DNA of 64,000 bases from Escherichia phage ECML-10: the sequence record OL631479.1. One strand, 5' to 3'. The notes below the pieces were generated by a model. The model made no database searches, had not been told where the DNA came from, and was given only the letters and a program-made list of their open reading frames with translations. The position numbers were made by a program, and so were the translations under genes. Shown piece after piece: positions 9,290 through 55,303 of the stretch. The first letter of the stretch is position 1, and each line of letters starts with the position of its first letter.

Positions 9290-9496
9290 ATGAAAGATTT
9301 TCTGTTGGCAATTTTGTTCATGGCGGCATGTCTGGCCTGTGGTGTCGTGTTTGCAGGTGAAACAGCGTATCTTGTCGATGTATATCGTGACAATGGTAAA
9401 CGTATTTGCCTTTATGAGACAAGCCAAGGTGAGCTCTACGAGCTTGTGAAACAAGGTGAGGCAGGTTCCTGCCCTCGCACCAATTTCTTTGAATGA
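9290..9496 (+). CDS. small protein with N-terminal hydrophobic signal-like segment
   Basis: SD GAGGGGG; MKDFLLAILFMAACLACGVVFAG hydrophobic N-terminus. Confidence 0.45.
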   Translation: MKDFLLAILFMAACLACGVVFAGETAYLVDVYRDNGKRICLYETSQGELYELVKQGEAGSCPRTNFFE

Positions 9497-9506
9497 GGGA
9501 GAACAC

Positions 9507-9971
9507 GTGGAAGACGGACGTTTAATGAAGTCTGAACGAAGGCTTATTGTGCAACTGATCCCAGAAACAGCTTGGTATAATAACCTCCGAAACGCTGTGA
9601 AGAAGAGTGAGTGGGATAAGATCCGCAAGAAGTGCTATAGAGAAGCCAACTACACCTGTGAGGTGTGCGGCGGTAAAGGCAGCAAACACCCAGTGGAGTG
9701 TCATGAACTTTACACTTTCGAAGAGGGAGTGATCCGGCTTGTCGGACTGATAGCACTGTGCCCGGATTGTCACACATCGGTGCATCCTGGGTTAGCAAAT
9801 ATCCGTGGAAAGTATGCTCAGGCAGTTAATCAGTTGGCTAAGGTGAATAAGATCACCAAGAGTATGGCAGAGGCGTATTACCGAGACTGCTTTGCAGAGT
9901 GGCGTGAGCTTAGTAAAGTTCCAGAATGGAAGACTGACTTTTCGTGGATAGAGGGTTACCTTGATGGCTAA
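9507..9971 (+). CDS. HNH-like zinc-finger nuclease, putative
   Basis: Start moved to GTG 9507 (SD GAGGGAG); CEVCGG...H...CPDCH Cys/His cluster. Confidence 0.5.
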   Translation: MEDGRLMKSERRLIVQLIPETAWYNNLRNAVKKSEWDKIRKKCYREANYTCEVCGGKGSKHPVECHELYTFEEGVIRLVGLIALCPDCHTSVHPGLANIRGKYAQAVNQLAKVNKITKSMAEAYYRDCFAEWRELSKVPEWKTDFSWIEGYLDG

Positions 9972-19117: not shown

Positions 19118-21429
19118 TCACCAAGGTAATTAAAAGCAACGGATGTGAAGTGGCATTCGATCCAGAACGTTTAAATAAGGCAGCTATTTTCGGTGACGAC
19201 GGTAACGGCAATTGGTCACATATTGCACTGGATGCATACAAACGACTGTATGATGGATGTACAACCAAAGAAGTTAACCAAGCTATCATAGACTCCTGTG
19301 TTAGCCGTAAAGACGAAGCACATTCCTGTATGGCTGGTCGTGTTCTTATTGGTCAGATTTATAAAGAGGCTTTTGGAGGGTTTACAAAGATCCCTTCCTT
19401 ACCATCATTTTACAACGACATGGTTGAGAAAGGGTATTGGGAGGATATGGGATATAGCTTTACCGAGCTAAACACTTTAGACGCTGTTATTGACCACAGT
19501 AAAGATCTCGGTTATGGCTATGCAGTCCTTAAACAGTTTCGCGACAAATACGGGATCAAGGATACTCTTAAAGACACCTTGTTTGAATCTCCCCAGATGA
19601 TGTTTATGGGGATAGCAATGGCTGTCATGAAGAATATGCCGAAAGAACGTCGTATCAACGATGTTGTAAAATTATACACTTATCTGTCCGACTTAAAGAT
19701 CAATGCCCCGACACCGTACTTAAACGGGCTGCGCACAGGTAAGACAGGGTATGCATCTTGTTGTGTAATAAAAGCTGACGATACAGCAAAATCTATTGGT
19801 GTGGCACGTGAAGTTGCGTACACAATGACGGTTAACCAAGCAGGTATCGGCTACTATTTATCATCAAGATCTGCAGGTGATGGTGTTCGCGGTAACACTA
19901 TTAAACACATGGGTAAGATTCCATATTATCGAGGTATTGACGCTGGGGTTAAGGAGAACAGGCAACAATCACGTGGCGGTTCTGCAACAGTATCATTCCT
20001 TGCACTAGACCCGCAGATTGATGAGCTAATCCGCTTGAGAAACCCTATGACTGTTGCTTCAAAAAGAATCAACACCATGGACTACTCCATCGGTATTAAT
20101 AGGTCGTTTATCAACCGTGTGGCTAAGAATTTAGATTGGATGCTTGTTTCTTATAAGCACGCTCCTCAACTGCATGAGGGTATCTTCACCATGTCTATGG
20201 AGGAGTTTGATGCAGAGGTTGATCGTATTGCTAAAGATGACAGTATCCCTAAAACATGGATCCGAGCCAGAGATCTTGCTGTTGAACTGATCACGCAGCG
20301 TACTGAGGTGGGAAGGCTGTATGTATACTGGACAGATGAGATGAATAGACATACACCTTTTAAAGATGTGATCTATTCAAGTAACCTGTGTGCAGAAATA
20401 GCCCTCCCTACAAAAGGCTATTCAGATATGCGTAATATCTTCAAGTACGATGCTGATGATGGAGAGGTTGCATTGTGCTTCCTGTCATCTCTTGTAGCTG
20501 GAAGGGTTACTCCAGAGGAGTATGAGGATGTTGCATACTACACGGTGCTTATGATTGACAATGTTATGGAAATCATGACATATCCGTATGAAAATATGGA
20601 AAGCACAGTTAAAAAACGCAGATCCATCGGGGTTGGCCTTACCAATGTTGCACATTTTATTGCCAGCCACAAGGTTACTTACGGATCTCCTGAAAGTAAA
20701 CAGCTTGTTCACGATCTTGCAGAACTTCACAGCTACAGCTTGCATAAGGCAAGTTTACGGTTGGCAAAAGAGCGTGGTGTCTGCGAGTGGATGCATAAAA
20801 CAAAATATCCAGAAGGTTGGTTACCAATCGACACCTATAACAAAGAGGTCGATAGCGTGGTGAAAGATCCTTCTCTTAAACAGGATTGGGAAGGGTTACG
20901 TAAAGAAATTATTGAAAATGGTGGGCTACGTAATAGCGTTCTTGAAGCATATATGCCTAATGAAAGCTCTTCGCTGGCAACAAACACCACTAACGGGGTT
21001 TATCCTGTCCGTGAGCACATTATCTTTAAAAAGTCGCCACAAGGGCAGGTGCTGTTTATCGTTCCTGACTATGATGAGTTGAAAGAGTATTACACCTCGG
21101 CTTGGGACGTTGATACTAACGACATGATCGATATGTATGCTGTGATTCAAAAATTTACAGGTCAGGCAATCAGCGCGGATTTATACATAGACTACACCAA
21201 GTTGAAAGATGGTAAAATTTCAATGAAGGAGCAGCTAGGGTACCTTATCCGTGCCACTAAATTCGGGATGAAGACATGGTATTATTTAAACTCCAGGGTT
21301 GGTGCTGGTGACTCATTGGCAGAGGAACTTCATGCCAAGAAACAGGCTGAAGATGAAACCAGAAAGAACTACCCTTTGATTGCAGATAGTTCGGTTGAAG
21401 ATCCGTATTGCGAAAGTTGTGCACTATAA
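19114..21429 (+). CDS. nrdA: ribonucleotide reductase class Ia large subunit
   Basis: 771 aa; N-terminal ATP cone; active-site SNLCAEI; TTG start with SD GGAGGAAG. Confidence 0.9.
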   Translation: MITKVIKSNGCEVAFDPERLNKAAIFGDDGNGNWSHIALDAYKRLYDGCTTKEVNQAIIDSCVSRKDEAHSCMAGRVLIGQIYKEAFGGFTKIPSLPSFYNDMVEKGYWEDMGYSFTELNTLDAVIDHSKDLGYGYAVLKQFRDKYGIKDTLKDTLFESPQMMFMGIAMAVMKNMPKERRINDVVKLYTYLSDLKINAPTPYLNGLRTGKTGYASCCVIKADDTAKSIGVAREVAYTMTVNQAGIGYYLSSRSAGDGVRGNTIKHMGKIPYYRGIDAGVKENRQQSRGGSATVSFLALDPQIDELIRLRNPMTVASKRINTMDYSIGINRSFINRVAKNLDWMLVSYKHAPQLHEGIFTMSMEEFDAEVDRIAKDDSIPKTWIRARDLAVELITQRTEVGRLYVYWTDEMNRHTPFKDVIYSSNLCAEIALPTKGYSDMRNIFKYDADDGEVALCFLSSLVAGRVTPEEYEDVAYYTVLMIDNVMEIMTYPYENMESTVKKRRSIGVGLTNVAHFIASHKVTYGSPESKQLVHDLAELHSYSLHKASLRLAKERGVCEWMHKTKYPEGWLPIDTYNKEVDSVVKDPSLKQDWEGLRKEIIENGGLRNSVLEAYMPNESSSLATNTTNGVYPVREHIIFKKSPQGQVLFIVPDYDELKEYYTSAWDVDTNDMIDMYAVIQKFTGQAISADLYIDYTKLKDGKISMKEQLGYLIRATKFGMKTWYYLNSRVGAGDSLAEELHAKKQAEDETRKNYPLIADSSVEDPYCESCAL

Positions 21430-42748: not shown

Positions 42749-44329
42749 CACACAATTAGCTGCCCGGCTAAAGTGCTGGAAGCACCTATAACACATCTTT
42801 CAACTAAATTTCCCACCACCACAATCACTTACCTCCCACACATGACTGTTTGCTTGTTTAGTGAGCAGTCATGCCTTGACATTCTTGCCTATCCTGATAA
42901 AATTAAGTTCTTCTCTTTTCTTTTACCGAGTAATTCGGGTTTTCTGTTCTCTTCGGTTTGAAGGGGTATGGAGATACACCTGAGTGAACAGGGTGAACAA
43001 CCGAACATTTGGCTATGGCATTAGCATGGCGAAGCGGACGGGTGACGAAAGAGGGGCCGGAGGACACCAGTCACTGCCATATGATATATGGGTGATAACC
43101 TGAAGAGTCTGAATAAGTGTTTAAGTACCAGTCAGAGGAAAAGGTGAATGGTAGCCGAAGGGGGAGGGGGTTTCTTGTATCTTTAATTTGTATATTATGT
43201 ATACATTCGTAAACCAATCTCATCTGAATCTGTTTACCACACAAAGTGGATAGAGACAAATATTACCTATTAAACTTGAATTATTTATAGAAAATACTAC
43301 AACACTACTTAAGTATTTGATTTTACACACAAATCCTGCAGATATTCACCCCCCATATTTAACATACTTGTAACATATTCCATACTCTACCTGACCGATC
43401 AACTCACCCAACTACATCCTCCATATTTCCCCTGTCTGTACTACCCCTGCCCAGCCGGGAGTCCCGTCATATCTGGCTTTCCAGCAAATATCACACCCAC
43501 AAATATCATTGCCTGAAGAGGGTTTCATCCCATAATACATGCCTTACCTGAAGAGCGCTTCATATACCCCGTAAATTTTTTAATTGACACCCTCCCCGCC
43601 GCCGGAGGGGGTTGGCTTTTCCCACACAGACCCGAAGAGCCAGCCAGAAATATCTGAACAGGTCCAGCTATGCCACGATTTTGACCTGACCTACAGGAGT
43701 GCTTCCCTGTCAGGAGCCGGTAGCGACTGGAGTGCTGCCAGGCGGACGAAATGGGAATACTTCTCATTCTTATAATAATTCTCAAATATCGAGGCAGTGA
43801 GGCAAATTAATAGGTGAGGCCGTTCACACAGTGGCACAACATTTGCAACCTATCTTGTGTGGGGGAATGAGAATACCTATCATTGTGAGAATAGTTATCA
43901 TTACGGGCAATTTAACATAATACCCATTATGCGCACCACTGGCGATCCATACAGGGATTGATAACATGAGTTACTGTTTATGCATATAACAATTATATTT
44001 CTTACTATTTGTGTGGGATATAGTTAGCAGCCAATAGATTAGATATTGACCTGTAGACTTCTGACCGTCCAGACGTCTAAACGCCCACACAACAAGGCTT
44101 ATACATACATCGCTGAATGTAAACAGGGCCGCAAAAATGCTACCATACCAGATTGTAAATTTTTCATACAGCACTTGACAAAGAGGAGAAAAACTTGTCT
44201 GACACTTTAGACACAATAGTGACATAATGGTGACACACTGGGCATACTCAACACACTGGATACAATAACAGTTGTTACTATTGCATGCTTCACTGTTCAC
44301 GTATAGATTGTTTACACAGAGATGATAAG

Positions 44330-44620
44330 CCATGCCATTCGTTTGCATGACAATAATTAACTTGTTTACAATCTTTCACTGGCTATGCCAGGTGACCTTT
44401 GGTCACCCCTTCGGGTGTTTCTATGACATAATATAAAAGCAGGGCAACTATTAGAAGATCTATAGTTGCCTTGCTTGTTATGTCACGATTAACTAAATAC
44501 AAGGCAACTATGATCTGATTAATAGTTTGCAGACAAACTATCACGGGGGTGATGGTTACTGCTTTTATATTATGTCGCGACTCCGTCGCGCCATGCCATT
44601 CGTTTGCATAGTTGCCTTAT
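44330..44620. repeat. complex of direct and inverted repeats (GGCAACTAT iterons, 18-bp inverted pair, CCATTCGTTTGCAT direct pair)
   Basis: GGCAACTAT/ATAGTTGCC four times; GACATAATATAAAAGCAG at 44424-44441 with reverse complement at 44561-44578; CCATTCGTTTGCAT at about 44334 and 44596. Confidence 0.55.
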
Positions 44621-45869: not shown

Positions 45870-46080
45870 AATGTTTTCCTCTCTTCTGGTTGTTGTGTGG
45901 GCACTTTTGCCCCTTCAAGATAAATGTTACCCCACCACCTGGCAGATGTCAACGGTTTTTATAGTTCTTATATGACAGGCAGGCCCGGTGATTGTCTCCC
46001 CCCGTCGCCAGGTGCCTGCCGTGTAATAAGTATAACAAAAAACAGGACCATTGCAAGCCCTGTTTTCTAGTTAATAAGGA

Positions 46081-47704: not shown

Positions 47705-47767
47705 GATGATTCACCTATCTTTATTTTTTCATAGTTTCAGGAGGGGGCCTTTTCGGCCCCGCCAGGT

Positions 47768-53518: not shown

Positions 53519-53716
53519 TTATTTTTTATTAAACCAGTGGTTGATCTGGCCTTTTGTCAGGGCGCAACGATTAAGTTGGTGCCGGGTATAGCTCTGACCG
53601 CGACGGAATTTATAAAGGCCTTGCCCGTTGTTGATGGTTACGTCCACCTGGCAAACCATTTGATCGGTGACCACCTGGCGAGTGCTGCGACGTACTTTGA
53701 TTCCGTAGGCGTTCAT
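53519..53716 (-). CDS. hypothetical protein
   Basis: Start moved to ATG 53716 (SD GAGAGGA). Confidence 0.45.
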   Translation of the reverse strand: MNAYGIKVRRSTRQVVTDQMVCQVDVTINNGQGLYKFRRGQSYTRHQLNRCALTKGQINHWFNKK

Positions 53717-53795
53717 GATTTTTTTATCCTCTCTGTTAATTAGTGTGGTGTTGTTCACCTTGCGAGGATAAGAATAACAAGAACTGTCCGAGCTG

Positions 53796-53957
53796 TCAAC
53801 CATTAGTTAAAATTATTTTTGCCCCTGCCAGGTTAACCATCATTTTTTCGTACTCTTCTTTATGTTCCAACGCTCCCGCCATAGCCTTTTCAACCAGGGC
53901 GATAGCCTCAGCGTCATTAATAGCTACATTTTCCAGGGGGATTATATTACCTTTCAT
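53796..53957 (-). CDS. 53-aa hypothetical protein
   Basis: SD GGGGAGGT before ATG 53957; below track cutoff. Confidence 0.4.
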   Translation of the reverse strand: MKGNIIPLENVAINDAEAIALVEKAMAGALEHKEEYEKMMVNLAGAKIILTNG

Positions 53958-54149
53958 TTTTGTACCTCCCCTTCAATTGTTACCTATCCTATAGCATAGG
54001 CCCACCAGGTTTACAAGCCTTCATTCTCTCCTGCCTGGTCAGTTAGGTCCTGCCAGGCTGGCCCCGCCAGGTTGCAGCGGTTAGCGCATCAGGTTAGAAA
54101 AATTTTTTGAAAAGTGTTGACAGCGGCCCCGCCAGGTGGCACAATATAC

Positions 54150-54400
54150 CTATCGAAAGGACGGCAGGCACCGGTGACGGGGGAGACAACCACCGGGGAT
54201 GGGCGCTGCATAAAATGAGAACGGTTATCATTATCATTTAAAAATTTATGCAAAAAATCCTTGCTTTCTTTGTCCTGTGTGATACTATAATAACAAGCCG
54301 GGGCAACAGGGGCCGGGAGACAATCACCGGGCCTGCCCGTTATTCTGCAAACGAGAATGATTATCATTCAAAATTCTAAATGAGAACTCCTCGCATTTAA
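54150..54400. repeat. two copies of a duplicated noncoding unit carrying Fur-box-like palindromes
   Basis: GGGAGACAA(C/T)CACCGGG and ...GAGAA(C/T)G(G/A)TTATCATT... occur twice; GAATGATTATCATTC is a perfect 15-bp palindrome. Confidence 0.5.
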
Positions 54401-54419
54401 TAAATTTAATTAGCATGCT

Positions 54420-54960
54420 AATTACCCTCCGTAACAATTTCCTATAAAACAGTATCCCATAAAATATTCCCATATAGAAATTTTAAAAATCCATTTCTGA
54501 AAACGAAAAATCGATTTCGTCCCCAAAAATTTCAGGTCGAGATCCGGAACGATTTCCAGAAAATCCGATTCAGAAAACGAAAAACAGATCGAGTACTGAG
54601 AAATTTATCGAGAAAAATTTTCAGAAAATCCAAGCCATGAAATGAAAAGTAGATCGAGTACTTGGAAAGCTGCACCGCAACTTCAAGATAGTGGTTAGAT
54701 TGTTACCATAGAAGGTTAAGGGCAAGTGGAGGAAGTTCTAGTAGAGGGAGGTTAGCATGTGTGGGAAATCTATAATGGTGGCCTGGAATATGGTGCAAAC
54801 GATAGGATGAGTTATTCAGCTTGTCGCGCCTACTCTGAAAAATCCATTTTAGTTTTCGATCCATTTTCTGATTTTCTAAGAATTTTAAAATATCCAGCCC
54901 GGTGAAATATCAAAAGGAGGAAATCCATTTTAGAAATCCCCCTTACACTTGATATGCCAG
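54420..54960. repeat. AT-rich iteron-dense noncoding region
   Basis: Repeated GAAAATCC, TTCAGAAAACGAAAAA, AGATCGAGTACT and AAATCCATTTTAG motifs; no credible ORF. Confidence 0.55.
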
Positions 54961-54973
54961 GAATTTTCAAGTA

Positions 54974-55303
54974 TCAGCTGTCTTTGTTTTTAGGTTTGTA
55001 CATGCGTAAAGGTATGGTCTTTGTAACATTCCATTTCCTCAATCCTTCCCAGCTCCAGTTGTGGGCGTGGTATCCGGTTATGCATGCACTACTGGAGTGA
55101 TCGTAAGCATAAGAGAACGCTAAGCGCACCAGGTGGGGCCAGTCCTTCCATGGTTGTGGACCGTAAGCTTTTCTCCAACACCGACACAAACTAAATGTCT
55201 CAAGGATAGGAAGGATAACAAACCCATACACTGTCACCAAAATAGTCAGTGCAATGATTGTCAGGAACACATACCCTGCAGTTGAAATGATGATCTCTGT
55301 CAT
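54974..55303 (-). CDS. membrane protein (N-terminal TM helices)
   Basis: SD AAAGGGGA before ATG 55303; ISTAGYVFLTIIALTILVTVYGFVILPIL. Confidence 0.55.
   Translation of the reverse strand: MTEIIISTAGYVFLTIIALTILVTVYGFVILPILETFSLCRCWRKAYGPQPWKDWPHLVRLAFSYAYDHSSSACITGYHAHNWSWEGLRKWNVTKTIPLRMYKPKNKDS

Follow-up and report, generated by a model that had tools for sequence, protein, structure and literature searches.

Before this analysis, phage Fur boxes were known at toxin and transporter cargo genes of temperate phages. The stx1 gene of Shiga-toxin phages and the tox gene of corynephage beta are Fur/DtxR-controlled genes of this kind. In addition, lambdoid coliphages carry Fur boxes upstream of sitABCD (PMC6969025). 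The locus described here, found in a 64,000-nt stretch of DNA (the window) from the rV5-like Vequintavirus ECML-10, resembles these cargo genes (stx1, sitABCD and tox) in that a phage-borne sequence appears to be wired into the host iron regulator. However, the cargo genes have single operators at protein-coding promoters of temperate phages, whereas ECML-10 is strictly virulent and carries arrays in noncoding DNA, with no protein gene attached. [quoted passage not shown] However, the ryhB box covers the spacer and -10 of the gene's own promoter, whereas in the phage the RNA element comes first, then the boxes and then the next promoter; the two RNAs are unrelated in sequence, and that of the phage has neither a Rho-independent terminator nor an obvious Hfq-type 3' end. 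The same 19-bp box also occurs in Repeat Region 3 of phage T5 (direct repeat C copies 1-4 and palindromes E, G and I), at the injection-stop or first-step-transfer boundary, a region whose function was described as unknown in a preprint that does not mention Fur (10.1101/866236). Fur sites are likewise unmentioned in the rV5 genome paper (PMC3606486), and our literature search found no report of Fur sites in rV5-like or other virulent phages, nor of Fur in T5. On balance, the ECML-10 units probably represent a duplicated noncoding control module in which predicted host-Fur operators are coupled to phage noncoding transcription.

The locus comprises two tandem units at 54098-54400 that are 61% identical (91 of 149 alignment columns), each with a plus-strand sigma70 promoter, a GC-rich hairpin containing the 17-mer GGGAGACAAYCACCGGG and a 19-bp palindromic box (Table 1). 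The original prediction had recognized two related units of about 70 nt; the duplication is real, but the aligned units span 54098-54239 and 54240-54375, about 140 nt each, and are thus roughly twice the predicted size because the promoter falls inside the duplicated unit. They lie among early genes, in a gene-free gap of about 1 kb whose flanking genes all point leftward, and are adjoined by 62-74-bp iteron-like repeats (54468-54668) and several promoters. Pfam searches with nine neighbouring small proteins returned nothing informative. A location in a terminal repeat was suspected because the phiWec189 record starts and finishes in the locus, and was rejected: the 148-bp overlap falls within the duplicated unit and appears to be an artefact of assembly.

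Table 1. Features of the ECML-10 locus and related sites in the window
Feature	Position	Strand	Basis
Unit 1 promoter	54098-54145	+	promoter scan, 10/12 matches; sequence
Unit 1 GC-rich imperfect hairpin with 17-mer GGGAGACAACCACCGGG	54164-54209	+	fold, 17-mer statistics
Unit 1 Fur-type operator (predicted), primary box AATGAGAACGGTTATCATT	54214-54232		28.2 bits with phage-box matrix; 16/19 consensus
Unit 1 overlapping second site	54220-54238		12.2 bits; offset 6 bp
Unit 2 promoter	54240-54291	+	sequence
Unit 2 transcribed element (predicted)	54291-54355	+	covariance model, fold
Unit 2 Fur-type operator (predicted) AACGAGAATGATTATCATT	54350-54368		28.1 bits; 15/19 consensus
Unit 2 degenerate second box AATGAGAACTCCTCGCATT	54379-54397		19.9 bits; starts 29 bp after first
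Candidate leftward promoter with Fur box as spacer	54342-54371	-	hypothesis; flanking hexamers conserved
Third promoter-plus-hairpin copy	45978-46056	-	17-mer, covariance model, fold
Second cluster of Fur-type boxes, noncoding	43750-43768, 43866-43884, 43884-43902		22.8, 24.1, 19.0 bits
13-mer GGCCCCGCCAGGT copy	54060-54072	+	exact
13-mer GGCCCCGCCAGGT copy in unit 1 promoter spacer	54125-54137	+	exact
13-mer GGCCCCGCCAGGT, third exact copy	47755-47767		exact match
Annotated 92-aa ORF198 (rV5) or ORF185 (JES2013), hypothetical protein	54089-54367	-	annotation in rV5 and relatives

The unit 1 promoter combines an A/T-rich UP-like tract (54098-54116) with the TTGACA expected at 54117 (54117-54122), a 17-nt spacer and CACAAT (54140-54145) with TG upstream, and the promoter scan calls it in this form. 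Its UP/-35 part (54109-54122) resembles the corresponding part of the ryhB promoter, AAAAAGTGTTGGACA. In unit 2, an A/T-rich tract is followed by TTGCTT (54261-54266), a 16-nt spacer and TGaTACTAT (54280-54288); a TATAAT placed near 54283 by the original prediction is present, but at 54286-54291, where it provides an alternative -10 with a 19-nt spacer. The unit 2 promoter is nearly identical in relative L041 (about 75% identity to the window across the region), and in TH18 and Av-05 the third rightward promoter, TTGCTT-N17-TGaTAGAAT, is similar to it. In the unit-1-type promoters of L041 and L013, TTGACA and a -10 hexamer are kept and the spacers are unrelated. The same pattern, with -35/-10 hexamers at a constant distance from the element and divergent spacers, extends across at least eight genera, including Vequintavirus, Seunavirus, Certrevirus, Mydovirus, Avunavirus, Phapecoctavirus, Justusliebigvirus and phages of Erwinia, Pantoea and Enterobacter, and the units thereby appear to possess promoters of their own, as a small RNA gene would. 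The thrice-repeated 13-mer GGCCCCGCCAGGT of the original prediction occurs exactly where described (47755, 54060 and 54125). With up to two mismatches it has five matches in the window against 0.44 expected, degenerate relatives lie at 53821, 54000 and 54046, and copies in either orientation are found at or close to promoters and hairpins. The equivalent promoter spacers of L013 and L041 lack it, so that its position there is not conserved; neither the settings of the copies nor these spacers revealed a specific function, and the 13-mer needs no Fur-linked explanation.

The repeated (C/T)CACCGGG motif that had drawn attention to the units corresponds to the 17-mers GGGAGACAACCACCGGG (54181-54197) and GGGAGACAATCACCGGG (54315-54331). 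The 17-mer pattern has three matches in the window versus 0.07 expected, the third, overlooked originally, being an exact copy with its own promoter on the opposite strand (45984-46000). The unit 1 hairpin folds at -20.1 kcal/mol (z = -2.0) and matches weakly (12.7 bits, E about 1) a covariance model derived from seven other phages, and unit 2 reaches 45.4 bits (E = 1.4e-9) with a hairpin at 54301-54338, a predicted GACAA pentaloop and the conserved tail ATTCTGCAA after it. In the third copy, a promoter (TTGCAA at 46056-46051, 16-nt spacer, TGtTATACT ending at 46029) precedes the hairpin GGCAGGC...GCCTGCC (46020-45978), which scores 19.2 bits (E = 0.017) and folds at -23.8 kcal/mol (z = -2.9); a second promoter, TTGACA-N17-TAACAT (45952-45924), lies downstream. 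This hairpin has no Fur box after it, suggesting that the RNA element and Fur control are separable.

The covariance model links homologues across all the genera with conserved promoters, and covariation lends modest support to an RNA structure. Single-sequence folds (z = -0.05 to -2.9) were mostly no better than shuffles, RNAalifold found no consensus structure in an unguided MAFFT alignment of 16 copies, and a covariation test on seven sequences was not significant (271 of 500 shuffles equally good). In a model-fitted alignment of 23 sequences, which is biased towards the structure, pairing was 78% versus 74%, none of 500 shuffles being as good, and the outer helix was 90% paired with four of six pairs varying on both sides. 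No Rfam family was detected in the whole window at gathering thresholds, and lenient searches, at E up to 10 for 53700-54800 and E up to 1 for four homologous loci, gave chance-level matches only. A terminator scan of the plus strand from 53600 to 55200 found no terminator-like site and no intrinsic terminator after the hairpin, whose tail reads AUUCUGCAA, and no transcriptome for any rV5-like phage was found in the literature searched. A conserved predicted hairpin within the first ~60 nt of transcripts from strong early promoters, at several promoters per genome, may be comparable to lambda/P22 nut boxB and HK022 put. A GACAA pentaloop, as predicted in unit 2 and the third copy, is also the loop of P22 boxB. 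However, no boxA-like motif accompanies the phage hairpin, formation of the pentaloop is not possible in unit 1 or the PVP-SE1-type homologues, and no N-like protein was identified.

The suggestion of small RNA genes and/or Fur-like sites is supported for both, as separate parts of each unit; in silico, the Fur part is strongly supported and the small-RNA part less firmly so. Both AT-rich palindromes are present (GAGAACGGTTATCATTATCATTT at 54216-54238 and GAGAATGATTATCATTC at 54353-54369, the latter a true 7-1-7 palindrome), and their proposed iron-box likeness is reflected in 16 of 19 matches to the Fur consensus GATAATGATAATCATTATC at 54217-54235 and 15 of 19 at 54352-54370. Among 35-nt windows of the phage, one in about 1800 reaches 16/19, and 3 of 1828 reach at least 14. 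The degenerate box of unit 2 and the cluster at 43750-43902, which was left out of matrix building, had both escaped the original prediction. Boxes of at least 19 bits are confined to two noncoding regions of the 64-kb window, and matches of at least 15 bits number six, compared with 0.32 in shuffles. Baichoo and Helmann reportedly reinterpreted the Fur box as the 7-1-7 inverted repeat tGATAATnATTATCa; six of seven positions in each half of this repeat agree with the phage consensus tGAGAATnATT[A/C]TCa, and the right half of the unit 2 box, ATTATCA, is a perfect half site. Fur sites in overlapping clusters are offset by 3 or 6 bp, with 6 bp being a reported spacing in E. coli (PMC2189734). Unit 1 and many homologous boxes have a partner at +6, with five mismatches in the homologues, and the main spacing, 29 bp, is not a multiple of this register and is more like that of an iteron array.

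The palindrome arms vary one-sidedly (the pair 6/14 is G/A in 12 boxes and G/C in 12 others, with no case of T/A), which fits a protein site and not an RNA stem. That the palindromes are AU-rich terminator hairpins of a small RNA, or that the region encodes ORF198, is scarcely credible, although the palindromes directly follow the hairpin and are followed by UU(U/C), and ORF198 is annotated in many GenBank records. The RNA-hairpin reading was rejected because the arm changes are not compensatory and no terminator was called; the stems are also weak. ORF198 is not a gene: substitutions are evenly distributed over codon positions (3/3/4, 1/2/2, 7/7/5 and 26/23/23), the frame is broken in relatives by stops (L036 and L041) or a frameshift (L019), and its ATG, which no Shine-Dalgarno sequence precedes, falls within the Fur box. 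The noncoding nature of the region is thus established by these comparisons.

A weight matrix built from 28 distinct phage boxes only was used to scan 250 kb (499,820 positions) of E. coli K-12 MG1655. The three best matches were ryhB (28.1 bits), fecI (25.2) and fhuA (19.8), followed by entC, fecA, cirA, fepB, fepA-fes and fepD-entS, so that 9 of the 11 best matches are classic Fur-repressed promoters, although these Fur-regulated intergenic regions make up about 0.6% of the scanned sequence. The ryhB operator AATGAGAATGATTATTATT is one position off the phage consensus, and the unit 2 and fhuA operators share AACGAGAATGATTAT. Bona fide host operators match the 19-bp consensus at 12-16 positions (ryhB 16, fecI and entC 15, fhuA and cirA 14), a range that includes the two main boxes of the window. 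The sites ryhB, fecI and entC are among the strongest experimentally supported Fur sites of Chen et al. 2007, whose table also includes yeiL and yrhB (PMC2189734). The latter two are weaker matches of the phage-box matrix, and the result agrees with the information-theory model of that study. In their sequences, the phage boxes are therefore indistinguishable from the best host Fur sites. A tblastn search with E. coli Fur found no homologue in any Vequintavirinae, Stephanstirmvirinae or Demerecviridae record.

The module is common to rV5-like and phi92/phAPEC8-like phages, recurring in Seunavirus, Certrevirus, Mydovirus, Avunavirus, Phapecoctavirus and Justusliebigvirus with one to five boxes, often exactly 29 bp apart; the 29-bp start-to-start spacing is seen in L003, L005, L006, L042, L043, L054 and L055. 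The number of boxes per locus ranges from one (PVP-SE1, Hena1, TH18) to at least five, and unit 2 of L041 has no box. In the sequences read, a gap of about 9-10 nt separates the hairpin from the start of box 1. In PVP-SE1, EC152, Seu621, TH18 and Av-05, a -35 hexamer comes after the last box, with about 17 nt of A/T-rich sequence in between, and the unit 1 box and unit 2 promoter of the window are arranged in the same way. A tandem-box scan of viral contigs yielded 11 loci. In bacterial genomes (596 Gb), the RNA-plus-box pattern gave chance matches only, in unrelated taxa, because it is too loose for a search of that size. Box arrays also occur in T5-like phages, where they correspond to T5 direct repeat C and palindromes E, G and I; the T5 boxes at 9473-9631 score 23.5-29.6 bits, and up to nine boxes are present in T5-like phages. 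The T5-like phage pork27 additionally shares with the rV5-like module a GC hairpin and AATTCTCAAATGAGAAT junction. However, the T5 arrays, located in terminal repeats next to paired DnaA boxes, have no GAGACAAnCACCG hairpin element.

The regularity of the arrays bears on an unlikely alternative, namely that the boxes bind a phage-encoded or other host protein, for example as replication-origin iterons or as a DNA-entry structural element like the T5 injection-stop region, and resemble Fur sites by coincidence or mimicry. The origin of phage lambda contains four O-protein iterons, which the 19-bp inverted repeats at regular 29-bp spacing resemble. The gene-free gap of about 1 kb beside iteron-like repeats and several promoters, and the proximity of the T5 boxes to DnaA boxes at the first-step-transfer boundary, would also fit. 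However, the three phage families that share the box differ in their replication proteins, and this suggests a host factor; moreover, the matrix retrieves host Fur operators, not random A/T-rich sites. In addition, some phages have a single box, no DnaA box was found within 10 kb and no GATC excess in 54000-55000, and the published rV5 skew analysis gave no origin signal beyond changes in transcription direction (PMC3606486).

If the protein is Fur, the boxes could have no cis role and act as a decoy, with replicating phage genomes titrating the host Fur pool, although we consider this rather doubtful. Hundreds of genome copies, each with at least six predicted high-affinity operators and more in T5-like phages, would derepress iron uptake and RyhB and redirect iron to phage needs such as ribonucleotide reductase. 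Box number is flexible, with a second cluster in the window, and arrays occur in unrelated families and varied genomic contexts, including T5 terminal repeats, so that a function driven by copy number fits better than precise promoter control. The boxes also equal the strongest host operators in matrix strength, their placement is atypical for Fur repression, and multicopy Fur boxes derepress the Fur regulon in the Fur titration assay. However, in many genera box 1 keeps a constant distance and conserved flanks with respect to the hairpin and the promoter that follows, which a pure sponge would not need, and the phages with single boxes would titrate poorly.

Under the preferred reading of a Fur-coupled control module, three parts would act together. 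A host-type sigma70 promoter would fire rightward, opposite to the flanking genes; an element of about 50 nt, transcribed from near the transcription start, would form an imperfect GC-rich hairpin with the near-invariant GAGACAAnCACCG in its apical region; and about 10 nt further on, at least one 19-bp palindrome of consensus AATGAGAATGATT[A/C]TCATT would serve as a host Fur operator. E. coli Fur sites usually overlap the -35 or -10 of the repressed promoter (PMC2189734). The phage boxes instead follow the hairpin-RNA promoter and precede the next rightward one, at about +60 from the former and about -50 to -100 from the latter, a placement atypical for repression; they are clear of the strong rightward promoters and cover, besides a weak candidate leftward promoter, only the UP-like tract ahead of the next rightward promoter, with the last box ending about 17-22 nt upstream of its -35. 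Given this placement between promoters, we infer two effects of Fur binding in vivo: in iron-replete cells, Fe-Fur dimers on the boxes would halt or restrict hairpin-RNA read-through, and would damp the downstream promoter and possibly also the weak leftward promoter that has a box as its spacer. Iron limitation would release these effects, making rightward noncoding transcription into the neighbouring repeats responsive to iron.

That leftward promoter (TTGAAT at 54371-54366, 18 nt, CAGAAT at 54347-54342) could itself be the Fur target, a convergent-promoter switch that we judge quite improbable. Departure of Fur would then send antisense transcription through the hairpin element and promoter into the leftward early genes and impede the rightward RNA. 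The hexamers beside box 1 are kept in PVP-SE1, CR3, Hena1, EC152, TH18 and L015 (of 17 lineages, about 11 have TTGAAT and about 13 have nAGAAT), and a leftward promoter would explain the puzzling conservation of ATTCTGCA and CAA there. The flanking genes are all leftward, and ryhB exemplifies the classical architecture, in which a Fur box covers spacer and -10. However, the promoter has 8 of 12 consensus matches and an 18-nt spacer, below the scanner's threshold for a call; CAGAAT is equally readable as a further Fur hexamer, because it is 18 bp in phase with GAGAAT; and no credible -35 is present in unit 1 and several lineages (anhysbys, SD2, UPEC06).

Collectively, the anatomy and conservation of the module suggest that ECML-10 and its relatives may read or manipulate host iron status. 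A broader and more tentative possibility is that virulent families (rV5-like, phi92/phAPEC8-like and T5-like) carry conserved arrays of predicted top-affinity Fur operators in noncoding control or terminal regions, and that these arrays serve either for iron sensing or for a Fur titration that would reprogramme the iron metabolism of the host. Such arrays could, in T5, join the injection-stop protein-DNA complex, and the hairpin RNA, together with a second conserved RNA of the relatives, would represent new phage noncoding RNA families of this circuit. If Fur binds, rV5-like phages would tune early noncoding transcription to host iron or disturb the Fur regulon, the long-unexplained T5 injection-stop palindromes would gain a testable candidate ligand, and a spurious hypothetical protein of many related genomes would give way to a regulatory module and a new candidate phage RNA. 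The rV5-like phages are used for O157 typing and biocontrol, and the gut and infection sites are iron-limited, so that a Fur link would also bear on the efficacy of phage therapy.

All elements named in the original prediction were found in the sequence of ECML-10, which over 3 kb around the finding shares 97.6% identity with Escherichia phage JES2013 and ~95% with the Vequintavirus rV5. The 17-mer GGGAGACAAYCACCGGG occurs in both units as claimed and once more on the opposite strand (3 matches vs 0.07 expected), and the 13-mer GGCCCCGCCAGGT has three exact copies. The duplication itself stands, but the proposed unit size of ~70 nt does not: because the two tandem stretches align (91/149 columns identical), the real unit is ~140 nt long, with an A/T-rich tract and a promoter inside it. 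The observation is thus confirmed, and its hedged interpretation as possible small RNA genes or Fur-like sites is supported in silico.

The annotated genes flanking the units on both sides all lie on the minus strand, and a 92-aa hypothetical protein (ORF198 in rV5, ORF185 in JES2013) is annotated exactly over both units. This ORF was rejected as a gene, since substitutions are evenly spread over codon positions (3/3/4, 1/2/2, 7/7/5 and 26/23/23 against four Vequintavirus relatives), the frame is broken by stop codons in two relatives (L036 and L041) and by a frameshift in another (L019), and the ATG lies within the palindrome and lacks a ribosome-binding site. A 53-aa ORF to the right (ORF199/ORF186 in relatives) may likewise be spurious; it lies in a stretch that resembles the noncoding repeat region and corresponds by homology to the right-hand portion of the gene-free gap in relatives. 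This part of the window also holds a 30-nt inverted repeat with 70% complementary arms, both carrying a strong Shine-Dalgarno-like GGAGGG/GAGGGAGG and then an outward-facing ATG, the left one a putative start of a 30-codon ORF across the unit 2 boxes.

Coordinates of the features at the locus and of related features (window positions unless another locus is named)
Feature	Position	Strand	Remarks
Unit 1	54098-54239		promoter TTGACA-N17-CACAAT, TG upstream, A/T-rich UP-like tract (promoter scan)
Unit 2	54240-54375		promoter TTGCTT-N16-TGaTACTAT, alternatively TATAAT with 19-nt spacer
Third copy, without box	46056-45978	minus	promoter TTGCAA-N16-TGtTATACT, directly following a terminator
17-mer	54181; 54315; 45984-46000		last copy on opposite strand
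13-mer	47755; 54060; 54125
Matches to Fur consensus	54217-54235; 54352-54370		16/19; 15/19
Boxes of at least 19 bits	54214; 54350; 54379; 43750; 43866; 43884		no others in the 64-kb window
ORF198/ORF185	54089-54367	minus	92 aa
30-codon ORF	54416-54324	minus
Inverted repeat arms	54414-54443; 54730-54759
Iteron-like direct repeats	54468-54668		three of 62 nt, spacing 74 and 65 nt
ORF199/ORF186	54703-54864	minus	53 aa
AAATCCATTTTAG repeats	54840; 54921		in the ORF199/ORF186 stretch
Second noncoding region	43300-44400		~1.1 kb
AAATATCA repeats	43486; 43501		second noncoding region
TTGACA, then GC hairpin	43584-43625		second noncoding region
phiWec189 record overlap	54213-54360		148 bp
Unit 1 UP/-35 part	54100-54122		AAATTTTTTGAAAAGTGTTGACA
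ryhB UP/-35 part (E. coli, L049)	~21045-21070	minus	TTTTTTTGCAAAAAGTGTTGGACA
~85-nt RNA candidate	L004 1340-1425; L005 1330-1415; L006 1320-1405		and 14 other loci
GTAAA-N5-GTAAA	L005 ~1432-1448; L004 ~1430-1447; L003 ~1483-1499; L006 ~1417-1433
T5-like box arrays	L052 1064-1580; L053 700-1590		scored with phage matrix
T5 box array (L071, AY587007)	9473-9631		23-30 bits

The Fur-like palindromes hold up on closer inspection, and allowing at most three mismatches to the Fur consensus returns only two sites in 64 kb. The 28 distinct 19-mers collected from 16 phage loci yield the consensus AATGAGAATGATT[A/C]TCATT, which is the 7-1-7 Fur motif tGATAATnATTATCa, but with G replacing T once per half. 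A weight matrix built from these phage boxes alone served as an independent test on five 50-kb pieces of E. coli MG1655 picked for known Fur-regulated genes (499,820 positions). The best non-overlapping matches were, in order, the promoters of ryhB (AATGAGAATGATTATTATT, 28.1 bits), fecI (25.2) and fhuA (AACGAGAATGATTATTATA, 19.8), the yeiS-preT spacer (18.6), entC (17.9), the fecA-fecR spacer (17.4), the map-tff spacer (16.9), cirA (16.5), fepB (16.0), fepA-fes (15.7) and fepD-entS (14.5); classic Fur-repressed promoter regions thus take 9 of the 11 top matches, yet make up ~0.6% of the scanned sequence. In Chen et al. 2007, ryhB (25.2 bits), fecI and entC (both 23.1) rank with the strongest Fur sites that have experimental support; yeiL and yrhB, weaker matrix matches here, are tabled there as well (PMC2189734). 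The window boxes score 28.2, 28.1 and 19.9 bits, equal to or above the best host operators, and by this measure the phage boxes are predicted Fur-type operators. Changes in the palindrome arms affect one side without the other (G/A at positions 6/14 in 12 boxes, G/C in another 12, T/A in none), which argues for a protein site and disfavours an RNA stem. No Fur homologue was detected by tblastn with E. coli Fur in rV5-like, phi92-like or T5-like records, which makes host Fur the likely ligand. The unit 2 box and its adjoining flank, read on the minus strand (ATAATCATTCTCGTTTGC), agree with the fhuA operator region at 17/18 positions, and the UP/-35 part of unit 1 is similar to that of ryhB; these likenesses could reflect chance or ancestry.

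Distant BLAST searches with the 381-nt finding and the homologous CR3 segment returned 263 and 516 phage records, respectively. Loci were read in Seunavirus (PVP-SE1, GEC_vB_MG, EC152), Certrevirus (CR3 and a Pantoea phage), Mydovirus (Seu621, NDO71), Avunavirus (Av-05), Vequintavirinae without a given genus (TH18, UPEC06), Erwinia phage Hena1, Phapecoctavirus (anhysbys, AV125), Justusliebigvirus (SD2, phi92), KP13-16 and several IMG/VR contigs. They share a layout within a ~0.9-1 kb gene-free gap between leftward genes, comprising, rightward, a small plus-strand ORF, a promoter with a conserved 85-nt structured RNA, a promoter with a hairpin element homologous to the window units, 1-5 palindromic boxes, another rightward promoter, and repeats of 62-75 bp. 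In Vequintavirus, unit 1, an additional copy of the hairpin module, takes the place of the first RNA, and the unit 2 promoter resembles the third promoter of relatives. In relatives other than Vequintavirus, the ~85-nt noncoding RNA candidate, absent from the window, immediately precedes the hairpin module and has its own sigma70 promoter. Its sequence is near-invariant (CGCCACCCCACGGCG-AAAA-GGCGGGGCUAAC, followed by a variable hairpin and GGAAGGUGGAUCGCCGGUAG); 16 pairs are predicted by RNAalifold, one of them AU/GC-compensated, and no Rfam family matches it. The direct repeats immediately right of the window units are positionally homologous to the relatives' GATC-containing 65-75-bp repeats (AAATACGATCT...CGATCGAGAACC). 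The phiWec189 record (LC739538; L072/L073) starts and ends within the duplicated unit, most likely an assembly artefact of the tandem repeat and not a physical terminus. At this locus, some 17-21 records that carry the name of Campylobacter jejuni phages (e.g. MG065662, MG065650) share 95-99% identity with rV5-like or phAPEC8-like coliphages, which suggests mislabelled or contaminant entries.

In the relatives, the promoter hexamers (TTGCAA/TTGACC/TTGATC/TTGCTT with TATATT/TATTAT/GATAAT/TATTCT) lie 16-17 nt apart and ~7 nt before the hairpin element, while the spacer sequences are wholly different. Fixed hexamers with divergent spacers are the mark of selection on a predicted sigma70 promoter, and chiefly for this reason plus-strand transcription is thought likely. 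In CR3, PVP-SE1, anhysbys, Seu621, SD2, phi92 and KP13-16, but not in the window, a GTAAA-N5-GTAAA direct repeat abuts the -35 of the hairpin-RNA promoter on its upstream side; it fits the consensus of the CpxR box, a hint of a second host regulator. The 13-mer, found in the unit 1 promoter spacer, 65 nt upstream of it and beside a hairpin at its third site, is a genuine short repeat of the early region. Its shorter version YGCCAGGT has 15 copies (12 within 44-54 kb), which face either way with respect to nearby promoters. The equivalent spacers of the relatives L013 and L041 lack the 13-mer, and its positions, orientation and occurrence in relatives' spacers revealed no specific function and no Fur link.

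The hairpin element has a 6-bp outer helix whose first position lies at ~+1 to +3. Inside it come a variable middle part, a short inner stem of CGG/CCG type and an apical region with the near-invariant GAGACAAnCACCG. A covariance model of seven non-Vequintavirus sequences recovers unit 2 (45.4 bits, E = 1.4e-9), the minus-strand copy (19.2 bits, E = 0.017) and, marginally, unit 1 (12.7 bits). Structural support is modest: fold z-scores range from -0.05 to -2.9, RNAalifold on an unguided alignment gave no consensus structure, and the seven-sequence test was not significant. When 23 distinct sequences are aligned by fitting them to the model, a procedure that favours the structure, 78% of cells are paired vs 74% when shuffled (0/500 shuffles as good), and the outer helix is 90% paired with 4/6 pairs changed on both sides. 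Since no Rfam family matched and no intrinsic terminator lies 3' of the hairpin, we call it a putative conserved transcribed element, not a proven small RNA.

Boxes of at least 15 bits number 6 in the window vs 0.32 in shuffles, and the second trio among them (43750, 43866 and 43884), which did not contribute to the matrix, lies in a separate noncoding region. This region also holds short repeats and may correspond to the 'non-coding' block on the rV5 genome map. In the sequences read, box 1 starts ~9-10 nt past the hairpin, and ~17 A/T-rich nt separate the last box from the -35 of the rightward promoter that comes next. Between the unit 1 box and the unit 2 promoter of the window this distance is ~22 nt. 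Neighbouring boxes start exactly 29 bp apart in anhysbys (four boxes), CR3, Seu621, EC152, the Pantoea phage, KP13-16 and AV125, as do the two boxes of unit 2 in the window. Conservation extends to the sequences that border box 1 on its two sides, ATTCTGCA and CAA. On the minus strand they read TTGAAT-N18-CAGAAT and could form a weak promoter whose spacer is the Fur box; that Fur gates leftward transcription from it, towards the RNA promoter, is a rival mechanism and very unlikely.

The CR3 array also matches T5-like phages: pork27 and Yersinia phage phiR2-01 carry 4-9 boxes of 19-32 bits in the terminal-repeat noncoding region. In T5 itself the boxes coincide with 'direct repeat C copies 1-4' and 'palindromes E, G, I', adjoining the 7.9% nick and the first-step-transfer shear point (injection-stop boundary). 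The most detailed analysis of this region found the function of its repeats and palindromes impossible to guess and mentions neither Fur nor iron (10.1101/866236). That the boxes serve another protein, for instance as origin iterons or in a DNA-entry complex, seems quite improbable; a search for origin signatures in the window found none, and the skew analysis of the rV5 authors gave no origin.

Taken together, sequence comparison establishes a duplicated, non-coding, conserved module of predicted promoter, hairpin and operators, the last equivalent in sequence to the host's strongest Fur sites. Simple Fur repression sits poorly with boxes that do not overlap strong promoters, with a 29-bp spacing that is no Fur register, and with the lack of a box in the third hairpin copy and of the unit 2 box in L041. 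A Fur sponge, in which genome amplification titrates Fur and derepresses host iron uptake, is conceivable but unlikely. Under the reading that we prefer, Fe-Fur would occupy the boxes in an iron-replete cell and, lying between tandem rightward promoters, would limit read-through of the hairpin transcript and dampen the next promoter, an effect that iron limitation would lift. In temperate phages, cargo genes are known to carry Fur boxes, stx1 being one example. Another is sitABCD (PMC6969025). The literature search returned no report of Fur sites in virulent phages, no rV5-like transcriptome and nothing tying T5 to Fur. The operator type is classical; its arrayed, noncoding use across several families of virulent phages, together with the attached hairpin, appears to be new.
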